Shown here: positions 38,198-38,936 of the stretch, in pieces
How the letters are laid out: each line of letters begins with the position of its first letter
Position numbering within the stretch: position 1 is the stretch's first letter
DNA from: a virus
IMG/VR virus record: IMGVR_UViG_3300001528_000417
Coordinates: 1-38,955 of that record
Direction: 5' to 3' (one strand)
Length of the DNA stretch: 38,955 nt
The notes under the pieces: model-generated
The model's input: the letters and a program-made list of their open reading frames with translations, nothing else
Databases searched by the model: none
Told to the model about the DNA's origin: nothing
Translations under genes and position numbers: made by a program

Positions 38198-38232
38198 GCA
38201 TAAGAAAACAGCCTTGATTTCTCAAAGCTGTT
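38198..38232 (-). terminator. Rho-independent terminator
   Basis: AACAGCTTTGA-GAAA-TCAAGGCTGTT (11-bp stem) followed by TTCTTATGC. Confidence 0.75.
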
Positions 38233-38353
38233 CCCTTAGAATATTGGTCATTTGGCAGGCGTACAGTTCTCCTGCATCTCTCGGGTTTCCCCTGTCATAC
38301 CGTCGGCGTGTGGATTGTACGAAATTTTCCACCTCAAATGACCTTTCTTATCT
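38233..38353 (-). ncRNA. Candidate structured RNA (or 32-codon TTG-initiated peptide mRNA) with its own promoter
   Basis: Promoter TTTACA (38389..38384)-17 nt-TATAAT (38366..38361). A 9-bp closing stem pairs 38335..38343 with 38246..38254. Three internal hairpins; two loops are complementary (CGUACA/UGUACG). Confidence 0.45.
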
Positions 38354-38372
38354 TACTAGTATTATAGCATGA

Positions 38373-38936
38373 TTATTCCGATTTGTAAAGTACTTTTTTA
38401 TTTTTTATTATACGTTTCCAATCCTTTTCGTTAATTTTCATAAACGTGATAATAGAATTTTTAAACTCTGGATTATCCGAAGATGTAACAAGACGTAAAA
38501 CAGTTTTAAATTTCTCGCCATTTTTTTGAATTTCTTTTAAAATCAATGCGGTACTTGGTCTGTTGGCTTCAATAATATAATCCGGGTTTTCAATAATCTC
38601 TTTAAAATAAGCACTGAATCTTTCATAATCGTTGGGATGTCTTTCTTTTATATGATCTATCTGCTTGTTTGTAATAACAACCTCATCTGTTATAATATCT
38701 GATGTAATGCACTTATACTTCCGAATGTCAATTTTTCCTACCTTATTCACTCCACTTCCGCCCCCACTCCCACTCGTAAACCGTCCGTTTTTGGGGTCGT
38801 GGTTCGGGTTAAAGCGCAATTCTTCCGCCTGCTCTTTCAGCTCCCTTACCTCCGCCCGAAGCCTTAGTATCTTCTCGCCCTTTGCGTTCGTTTCCCGTAT
38901 AAGGCTGCGCGCCATTTCAACAGCGGCTTCATACAT
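38373..38936 (-). CDS. Cassette protein X2: conserved N-terminal module plus PBECR-like putative nuclease domain (the ORF crosses the circular junction)
   Basis: 187 aa in the window. On the circle it extends to the ATG at 93..95 (MERVESKTADYERMYEAA...). C-terminus ...VVITNKQIDHIKERHPNDYERF..IIENPDYII...KTVLRLV...SIITFMKI resembles phage BECR-fold nucleases. Confidence 0.65.
   Translation of the reverse strand: MYEAAVEMARSLIRETNAKGEKILRLRAEVRELKEQAEELRFNPNHDPKNGRFTSGSGGGSGVNKVGKIDIRKYKCITSDIITDEVVITNKQIDHIKERHPNDYERFSAYFKEIIENPDYIIEANRPSTALILKEIQKNGEKFKTVLRLVTSSDNPEFKNSIITFMKINEKDWKRIIKNKKVLYKSE

Follow-up and report, generated by a model that had tools for sequence, protein, structure and literature searches.

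The window analyzed here, a stretch of 38,955 nucleotides (nt) comprising positions 1 to 38,955 of the IMG/VR virus record IMGVR_UViG_3300001528_000417, carries on its minus strand a gene for a predicted ribonuclease (RNase), X2, followed directly by a compact transcription unit for a structured RNA. What is this RNA, and what does it do beside a nuclease gene? An earlier reading made from the sequence alone (hereafter, the sequence-only reading) had described a promoter, a fold of several hairpins and a terminator, and had proposed an RNA antitoxin resembling those of type III systems or a cis- or trans-acting regulator, with a short peptide as the alternative. The RNA is a member of a known family, skipping-rope; what is added here is the naming of its partner, the PBECR2/PBECR3 nuclease domains, and a one-way dependence between the two: the nuclease is never without the RNA in the sampled loci, and the RNA persists alone.

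An Rfam scan, which the sequence-only reading had suggested as a check, supplied the family name that it had lacked. The sole Rfam 15 match at the gathering threshold in the whole window was RF02924 (skipping-rope) at 38342..38247 on the minus strand, with a score of 56 bits (gathering score, 36.7), coverage of model positions 1-80 of 80, and E = 6.4e-11. No second skipping-rope copy was found at the gathering threshold elsewhere in the window, and skipping-rope was the only family listed when 37800..38955 was scanned at E <= 1. The score, the compensatory helices, the 3′ terminator and the presence of a protein domain encoded nearby (PBECR2/3) all agree with membership, which we regard as almost certain. 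The family was described in 2017 as a multistem RNA of high conservation with Rho-independent terminators behind it, found in a phage and Clostridia setting and associated with one protein domain encoded nearby; its discoverers judged it to be neither a riboswitch nor self-cleaving and wrote that they saw no obvious hypothesis for its function (Weinberg et al. 2017, PMC5737381). They class it as a probable small RNA, in keeping with the Rfam type of RF02924, "sRNA," and no later paper giving it a function was found in a full-text literature search. The 2017 study describes the partner domain in its supplement, and part of the link reported below may therefore already be in print. The window RNA resembles the family in its full-length match, junction, invariant nucleotides, 3′ terminator, and phage/Clostridia setting. 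There is no defining difference, the window RNA belonging to a subclass in which the loop-loop helix is long (6 bp) and a further hairpin, P3a, follows P3.

Read from the sequence, the unit is an RNA of about 150 nt with its own predicted promoter and terminator on the minus strand (Table 1). A promoter scan placed a sigma-70 promoter at 38389..38361, with a score of 11/12 and a TG extension; this is the TTTACA-17-TATAAT promoter of the sequence-only reading, with the −35 box inside X2 and the −10 box past its stop codon. Transcription of the RNA is predicted to start near 38354. The closing stem, the three hairpins, and the complementary loops of that reading were all recovered where it had placed them, as was a terminator, consisting of a hairpin and a U-tract, about 150 nt from the promoter. 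The terminator hairpin, AACAGCUUUGA-GAAA-UCAAGGCUGUU at 38232..38207 on the minus strand, has 11 bp, or 17 bp with its A-rich 5′ flank, and was not among the predictions of a simple terminator scan. When folded, the 158-nt unit reached −56.3 kcal/mol (z = −6.6), and none of 200 shuffled sequences was equally stable. Transcripts reading through from X2 would carry the skipping-rope RNA too.

Relatives of the RNA were collected by pattern scans of viral and genome collections, which gave more than 230 loci, and a filter on P1 pairing yielded 115 distinct RNA sequences. Matches in genomes came mainly from gut Clostridia (Lachnospiraceae, Oscillospiraceae, Ruminococcus, Roseburia, and Faecalibacterium). 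Two classes could be distinguished: class A, which includes the window RNA, has a long P2 loop, the extra hairpin P3a, and a 6-bp loop-loop helix, whereas class B is a shorter, canonical form with a 3-bp loop-loop helix. The proposed pairs were counted in an alignment of 42 class A RNAs, in which 98.7% of the cells held standard pairs, compared to 88.6% after shuffling and 28 to 43% when the 3′ partners were slid. The covariation score was 0.312, compared to 0.114 for shuffled alignments (0/500 reached the observed value) and at most 0.057 with slid 3′ partners. Two-sided changes were present at 11 pairs, located in P1 (four), the pseudoknot (four of its six), P3a (two), and P4 (one). P2 and P4 are invariant within class A, and their compensatory variants appear only across the family's classes, as GUGGA/UCCAC, GUCGG/CCGAC, GUGGG/CCCAC, and GUUGG/CCAAU for the arms of P2 and as GCAGG/CCUGC, GAUGG/CCAUC, GCUGG/CCAGC, and GCCGG/CCGGC for those of P4. 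The helices are thus supported in the 42 relatives by the covariation analysis that the sequence-only reading had put forward. The short P3 helix (GCC/GGU) is compatible with the relatives, which support it weakly.

The loop-loop helix varies most tellingly. In class A it takes at least 12 distinct, fully complementary 6-bp sequences, among them CGUACA/UGUACG, CGCACG/CGUGCG, CGUCCG/CGGACG, CGUAGC/GCUACG, CGUGGC/GCCACG, and CGCCCC/GGGGCG, and in class B it alternates between GGU/ACC and GGC/GCC. Loops drawn from different RNAs were complementary over 6 bp in 0.4% of pairings. Because the pairing of the loops covaries in relatives, what the sequence-only reading had noted as kissing-loop potential (CGUACA/UGUACG) is, on this comparative evidence, a real and conserved pseudoknot. 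The 6-bp pairing of the P2 and P4 loops would lock a multihelix junction made up of P1, P2, P3, the class-specific P3a, and P4. Within the junction, the nucleotides UUUGAGG, GAGAUG, and CCAAA are invariant.

The same comparison bears on whether the interval encodes a 29-residue, TTG-initiated peptide (MRWKISYNPHADGMTGETREMQENCTPAK) rather than a functional RNA. The open reading frame (ORF) does exist. Its frame is, however, lost in the 42 close relatives, which run on in three different downstream registers, many of them reaching a stop after 6 to 19 codons; the RNAs are 96, 97, 99, or 101 nt long, differences that are not multiples of three; substitutions compensate base pairs; and the start codon lies inside the P1 helix without a ribosome-binding site. 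With neither frame nor stops conserved, we rejected the peptide, which the sequence-only reading had kept as its alternative and which is now barely credible.

The transcription signals are likewise a property of the family. Among 222 distinct records of the RNA plus its flanks that were examined for a promoter and a T-run, a sigma-70 match of at least 10/12 lies at a fixed distance upstream in 178, compared to 3/222 for shuffled flanks, and a T-run follows the RNA in 187. The distance from the end of the −10 box to P1 is 17 to 21 nt in class A and 31 to 37 nt in class B. Class B loci have their promoter entirely between genes, and the terminator there is formed by the extended P1 itself together with its U-tract. 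Since a promoter of its own is conserved family-wide, the RNA is probably made separately as well as by read-through from the nuclease gene.

The nuclease gene in the window is predicted from its domain. X2 matches Pfam PF18810 (PBECR2) with 61 bits (cutoff, 27.1) and consists of a coiled-coil N terminus, an NPNHDPKNGRF linker, and the PBECR2 domain, which takes up about the last 122 codons; the gene follows head and tail genes. The domain was defined in phage polyvalent proteins, as a metal-independent RNase by prediction, in a study that noted its frequent fusion to MuF or portal domains, proposed that it is packaged and injected, and described its active site as His plus Ser/Thr (Iyer et al. 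2017). His30, Lys69, Arg83, and Ser96 are invariant in alignments of the PBECR domain, and Thr99 is invariant in one of them (A4); the invariant His30 and Ser96 fit the published active site. X2 is therefore a predicted RNase on the strength of the Pfam match and conserved residues, and a putative toxin. An AlphaFold model of the domain is confident (pLDDT 89, pTM 0.84) and has helices followed by a 4- to 5-stranded sheet, a topology that would suit a BECR fold, but no solved structure in the PDB matched it at E <= 0.001.

To what extent do the RNA and the nuclease domain occur together? Among the first 118 loci retrieved through the RNA, 65 encode a domain homologous to that of X2 (tblastn, 48 to 69% identity), which ends 20 to 45 nt upstream of the RNA on the same strand. 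The class of the RNA tracks the class of the protein: the partner of class A is usually a MuF or "minor capsid protein 2" protein of 500 to 725 amino acids (aa) with PBECR2 at its C terminus, and that of class B is a standalone protein of ~130 aa that matches PBECR3 at 86 to 88 bits. When loci were fetched by the X2 domain, independently of the RNA pattern, 16 of 17 contained a skipping-rope RNA above the gathering score, and the contig of the 17th ends inside the gene. Profile fetches returned 80 PBECR2 and 56 PBECR3 loci, five of which had too little downstream sequence, leaving 131 assessable loci. The RNA was recognized by its motif and the P1 test in 64 of these. The remaining 67 loci comprise 44 distinct sequences, of which 40 were submitted to Rfam and all 40 were positive; each of the other four is within a few base changes of a tested sequence in the part that was compared. 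In total, 131/131 loci of this sample, which consists of viral contigs only, reaches down to ~40% identity and includes many near-identical loci, carry a skipping-rope RNA 29 to 70 nt after the stop codon on the same strand. The tie to the upstream nuclease-like gene drawn by the sequence-only reading thus extends well beyond the window. The linkage holds for protein architectures between 125 and 725 aa in length and at identities as low as 40%, covering MuF and minor-capsid fusions, standalone PBECR3, and a chromosomal standalone PBECR2 gene. The last was found in Ruminococcus bromii chromosomes (L393; L395, 3361..5696), where a gene for a 125-aa PBECR2 protein lies between tRNA_edit (YbaK-like) and Fic genes, with the RNA 32 nt downstream and no phage genes nearby.

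The converse does not hold. Of 184 assessable loci anchored on the RNA, 47 lack a PBECR2/3 gene altogether; the gene is intact in 125 and reduced to partial or frameshifted remnants in the other 12. Orphan RNAs make up 11 of 89 viral loci (12%), compared to 36 of 95 loci in bacterial genomes (38%). Downstream of the RNA, genes vary, including RHH and Bro genes (in the window and one lineage), scaffold and capsid genes, unrelated small ORFs, and Fic (in R. bromii), and no conserved protein gene was found there across loci. Taken together, these patterns make a functional partnership of the skipping-rope RNA with the nuclease very probable.

Several observations were made in passing at these loci. 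The R. bromii PBECR2 protein occurs in more than 5,000 blocks of the collection, so that human gut data must contain the module very often. Tandem pairs of skipping-rope RNAs follow one PBECR gene at some loci (L283, 1602-1698 and 1756-1840; L367, 1596-1673 and 1763-1841; and L072, downstream of the first copy). An orphan RNA at locus L126 lies just after a small ORF that, judged by eye, is ParE/RelE-like, and a tRNA gene is present ~1 kb upstream at one PBECR3 locus (L363, 586-657).

The nature of the partnership can be read in several ways. We favor, with evenly balanced confidence, the reading that the skipping-rope RNA is an antidote that neutralizes the PBECR RNase. By binding the RNase domain, the folded RNA would hold it inactive in the producing cell, that is, in a lysogen or a cell assembling virions, and orphan copies could protect cells from the same nuclease brought in by related phages. 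That the RNA binds and inhibits the domain and that X2 is toxic are alike inferred from genomic patterns. The nuclease is not seen without the RNA and the RNA often persists alone or beside nuclease remains, a one-way dependence of the kind expected of a toxin and its antidote; in addition, the RNA has its own strong promoter, and no protein partner is conserved downstream. Also counted in favor is a sister cassette in the same genome with the same N-terminal linker and a DUF6883 domain, which has a small ORF in the slot that the RNA occupies after X2, as would suit the antitoxin position that the sequence-only reading had assigned to the RNA. Several points weigh against an antidote. An obligate linkage is equally expected of a cofactor or substrate RNA. 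The discoverers read the conservation of the junction across phyla as a sign of a "sophisticated biochemical function" (PMC5737381), and this conservation could mean more than passive inhibition. The 131/131 loci represent fewer independent lineages than the count suggests, and some orphan RNAs could adjoin nucleases missed by the two small profiles. As for the enzyme, its assignment as a predicted RNase rests on Pfam and conserved residues, and a fold search against solved structures gave no match at E <= 0.001, the best toxin-like match having TM scores of 0.45/0.55.

The chief alternative makes the RNA a working partner of the nuclease, namely, a cofactor, scaffold, activator, or specificity element, an RNA packaged in virions with MuF-PBECR2, or a substrate processed to an active form. 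It accounts equally well for a nuclease gene that is always accompanied by the RNA and for an RNA class that follows the protein class; invariant nucleotides in the junction, together with the pseudoknot, point to a precise tertiary structure, and it has been predicted that inactive versions of PBECR bind RNA and that the fusions are packaged in virions (Iyer et al. 2017). Where it fails is on the orphans, as about one-quarter of the RNA loci have no nuclease gene and others lie beside a decayed one; a strong separate promoter, which would supply excess RNA, is also more typical of an antidote, and we consider a working partner rather unlikely. Orphan copies in unrelated chromosomal contexts, the separate promoter and terminator, and the discoverers' classification as a probable small RNA would instead suit an independent trans-acting small RNA or a 3′-end element (a module that stabilizes mRNA or terminates transcription) that travels with PBECR in a mobile cassette without acting on the protein. 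That the linkage is complete, at a fixed distance and orientation, across architectures and to 40% identity speaks against such independence, as does the observation that the variable loops pair with each other and hence are not free for targets. We rejected antisense action of the RNA on the X2, RHH, and Bro mRNAs because duplex energies were no better than those of shuffled sequences (z of −0.4 to +1.5 over the three mRNAs; z = −0.42 for the X2 initiation region and +0.32 for the full X2 mRNA), so the antisense complementarity typical of type I systems was not found at X2 and the cis/trans regulator of the sequence-only reading gains no support from such complementarity to the neighboring mRNAs. 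We judge an independent element improbable. The small RHH_1/CopG gene downstream, with its own promoter, might encode a RelB-like antitoxin for an X2 protein of RelE-like fold, leaving the RNA incidental, and RHH genes do follow the RNA repeatedly in one abundant lineage, as well as at one class B locus. They are absent from most loci, where the constant neighbor is the RNA; as a conserved partner in a type II RelBE-like pair, the RHH protein was rejected in view of the variable downstream genes, and this explanation is very improbable.

If the RNA is an antidote, how does it compare with known systems? Like the RNAs of type III toxin-antitoxin systems (ToxIN, CptIN, TenpIN, AbiF; AvcID), it is proposed to neutralize directly a toxin that is a predicted endoRNase, it contains a pseudoknot, and it occurs in a phage or prophage setting. 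Type III arrays, however, are tandem repeats upstream of the toxin with a terminator between them, whereas skipping-rope is a single unit downstream with its own promoter; no tandem repeat was found within the window RNA, and two-copy tandems occur only in a few relatives. The toxins differ too, being ToxN/AbiQ, CptN, TenpN, or AbiF in type III and here the predicted BECR-fold domains PBECR2 and PBECR3, with no PADLOC match. The type III analogy of the sequence-only reading therefore stands for the proposed role and falls for the features that define the family, namely, a repeat array and a ToxN/AbiQ-type toxin, and the unit belongs to no known type III family. A repeat array is not a requirement for an RNA antitoxin, as AvcID illustrates.

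The other likeness is to polymorphic toxin-immunity pairs (MuF toxins, colicin D/E5 with Imm, and barnase-barstar), which share with the skipping-rope loci a variable C-terminal RNase on a delivery or virion module, an antidote immediately downstream, orphan antidotes, and sister cassettes in the same genome that share a linker and differ in their C-terminal domains. MuF toxins were reportedly treated as polymorphic toxins by Jamet in 2017. To our knowledge, the immunity factors of the MuF, colicin D/E5, and barnase-barstar systems are all proteins, whereas the conserved downstream element at skipping-rope loci is an RNA. The DUF3800-I to XI and drum motifs of the 2017 study are also structured RNAs with a terminator and one protein domain each, for which no function was proposed (PMC5737381); they differ from skipping-rope in structure and partner protein, and X2 has no Pfam match to DUF3800.

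In topology alone, the consensus of the Rfam family resembles a tRNA cloverleaf, with four helices and junction linkers of 2-1-4-0 nt in the arrangement of the acceptor, D, anticodon, and T arms. Where the D and T loops pair in tRNA, the loops of the first and third hairpins pair in skipping-rope (GG with CC in the short class). The middle hairpin differs in having a tetraloop rather than a 7-nt anticodon loop, and skipping-rope has no CCA end and, in the window's subclass, an extra hairpin. Identity with tRNA was rejected, as there was no sequence similarity, no tRNA in the window by ARAGORN and no tRNA match at E <= 1 in the Rfam scan of 37800..38955. Colicins D and E5, relatives of the partner nuclease, cleave tRNAs. 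This kinship and the cloverleaf plan suggest that the RNA might be a tRNA-shaped, uncleavable pseudo-substrate, which could fill the substrate site of a colicin D/E5-like tRNase and yet escape cleavage. The skipping-rope RNAs would then be the first RNA immunity factors of phage-delivered polymorphic RNase toxins, and chromosomal orphans would represent acquired immunity against injected nucleases; we offer this as a speculative and unlikely extension.

Table 1. Positions in the window of the skipping-rope unit, X2, and neighboring features
Feature	Position	Strand	Description
−35 box, TTTACA	38389..38384	minus	X2 L-Y-K codons, among the last of the gene
X2 stop codon, TAA	38375..38373	minus	C-terminal residues of X2, K-V-L-Y-K-S-E
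Extended −10 box, TGcTATAAT (position of hexamer)	38366..38361	minus	just 3′ of the X2 stop; spacer to −35 box, 17 nt
Skipping-rope RNA core, 98 nt	38343..38246	minus	short leader 5′ of the core
P1 closing stem, GGUCAUUUG/CAAAUGACC	38343..38335 with 38254..38246	minus	9 bp
P2, GUGGA/UCCAC	38332..38328 with 38314..38310	minus	read from the sequence
Pseudoknot 5′ strand, CGUACA	38321..38316	minus	within the P2 loop
P3, GCC/GGU	38307..38305 with 38301..38299	minus	short helix between P2 and P3a; missing from the sequence-only reading
P3a, GGG-GAAA-CCC	38292..38290 with 38285..38283	minus	GAAA loop
P4, GCAGG/CCUGC	38275..38271 with 38259..38255	minus	read from the sequence
Pseudoknot 3′ strand, UGUACG	38265..38260	minus	P4 loop, adjoining the 3′ arm of P4
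Intrinsic terminator	~38238..38200	minus	hairpin and U-rich tail
TTG-initiated ORF, MRWKISYNPHADGMTGETREMQENCTPAK, 29 codons	38337..38248	minus	starts at the invariant UUG of UUGAGG, inside P1
X2, main part	38373..38955	minus	PBECR2-domain predicted RNase; frame open to the window end
X2, first 20 nt with start codon	76..95	minus	continues at 38955 over the circular junction; starts MERVES
RHH protein gene, 58 aa	38116..37940	minus	RHH_1/CopG, 26 bits; weak DUF6290 match
Promoter of RHH gene	38174..38146	minus	promoter scan
Linker-bearing ORFs	5006..5602, 32152..32607, 33431..35020, 38373..38955	minus	C-terminal domains differ

The setting of the unit is a phage genome that closes on itself. 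Because the first and last 75 nt of the window are identical (1..75 and 38881..38955, a terminal direct repeat), the window is, as judged from this repeat, a circular or circularly permuted genome of ~38,880 bp. X2, listed as a 187-aa ORF inside the window, accordingly had to be corrected to 200 aa across the circular junction; an identical 200-aa protein (P0001) exists, and the window is colinear with a second contig (L392) by blastn. Among deposited phages, the only DNA relative found by blastn was a 56-nt, 80% match to Clostridium phage phi8074-B1 in a region without annotation. No sequence homologue of the PBECR2 domain was found among solved structures, and the PADLOC defense models did not match X2, the RHH protein, or one PBECR3 protein.

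X2 is one of four ORFs in the genome that share a linker, which reads NPNHDPKNGRF in X2 and two others and NPYHAKDGKF in the portal protein. Their C-terminal domains are DUF6883, an unrecognized domain, another unrecognized domain on the portal, and PBECR2, and two of the four have a similar coiled-coil N terminus, so that from their sequences they look like a family of polymorphic-toxin-style cassettes within one phage. DUF6883 has been placed among BECR toxins in a 2026 preprint. The small ORF directly after the DUF6883 cassette (4858..5016 on the minus strand, 52 aa) has no Pfam match, and its identity as DUF4926 was not confirmed; no RNA partner was found after this cassette, where the fold z score was only −1.7 and Rfam matches were subthreshold.

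Other features of the region were noted. A Bro-N domain is split over overlapping minus-strand ORFs in different frames, 37620..37850 (76 aa, profile positions 3-37) and 36953..37708 (251 aa, profile positions 52-96), which suggests a frameshifted or pseudogenized antirepressor-like gene or a sequencing error. On the plus strand, a 12/12, TG-extended promoter (TTGACA-17-TATAAT, 37839..37867) precedes a terminator-like hairpin (37923..37940). This pair (37839..37940) is oriented convergently to the RHH gene and could specify another short transcript of ~75 nt. The gene order is unusual for a siphovirus: 28206..36725 on the minus strand contains terminase, portal, and the cassettes and then tape-measure and distal tail genes, and 83..4831 on the same strand contains protease, capsid, connector, and tail tube genes leading into X2, with a plus-strand block at ~16 to 24 kb between the halves.

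The function of skipping-rope has been open since 2017, although the RNA is highly conserved and widespread in gut Clostridia and their phages. PBECR domains, for their part, are abundant predicted RNases of phage virion proteins for which we know of no target or immunity factor. Linking the RNA and the nuclease merges these two open questions and makes the function directly testable. Even if the antidote reading fails, the pair would still be a compact and very common ribonucleoprotein candidate of the human gut virome. If it is true, RNA antitoxins of the type III kind would extend to BECR-fold toxins, polymorphic-toxin settings would have in skipping-rope their first immunity element made of RNA, and the occurrence of MuF-type toxins of the PBECR class without a conserved immunity ORF would be explained.

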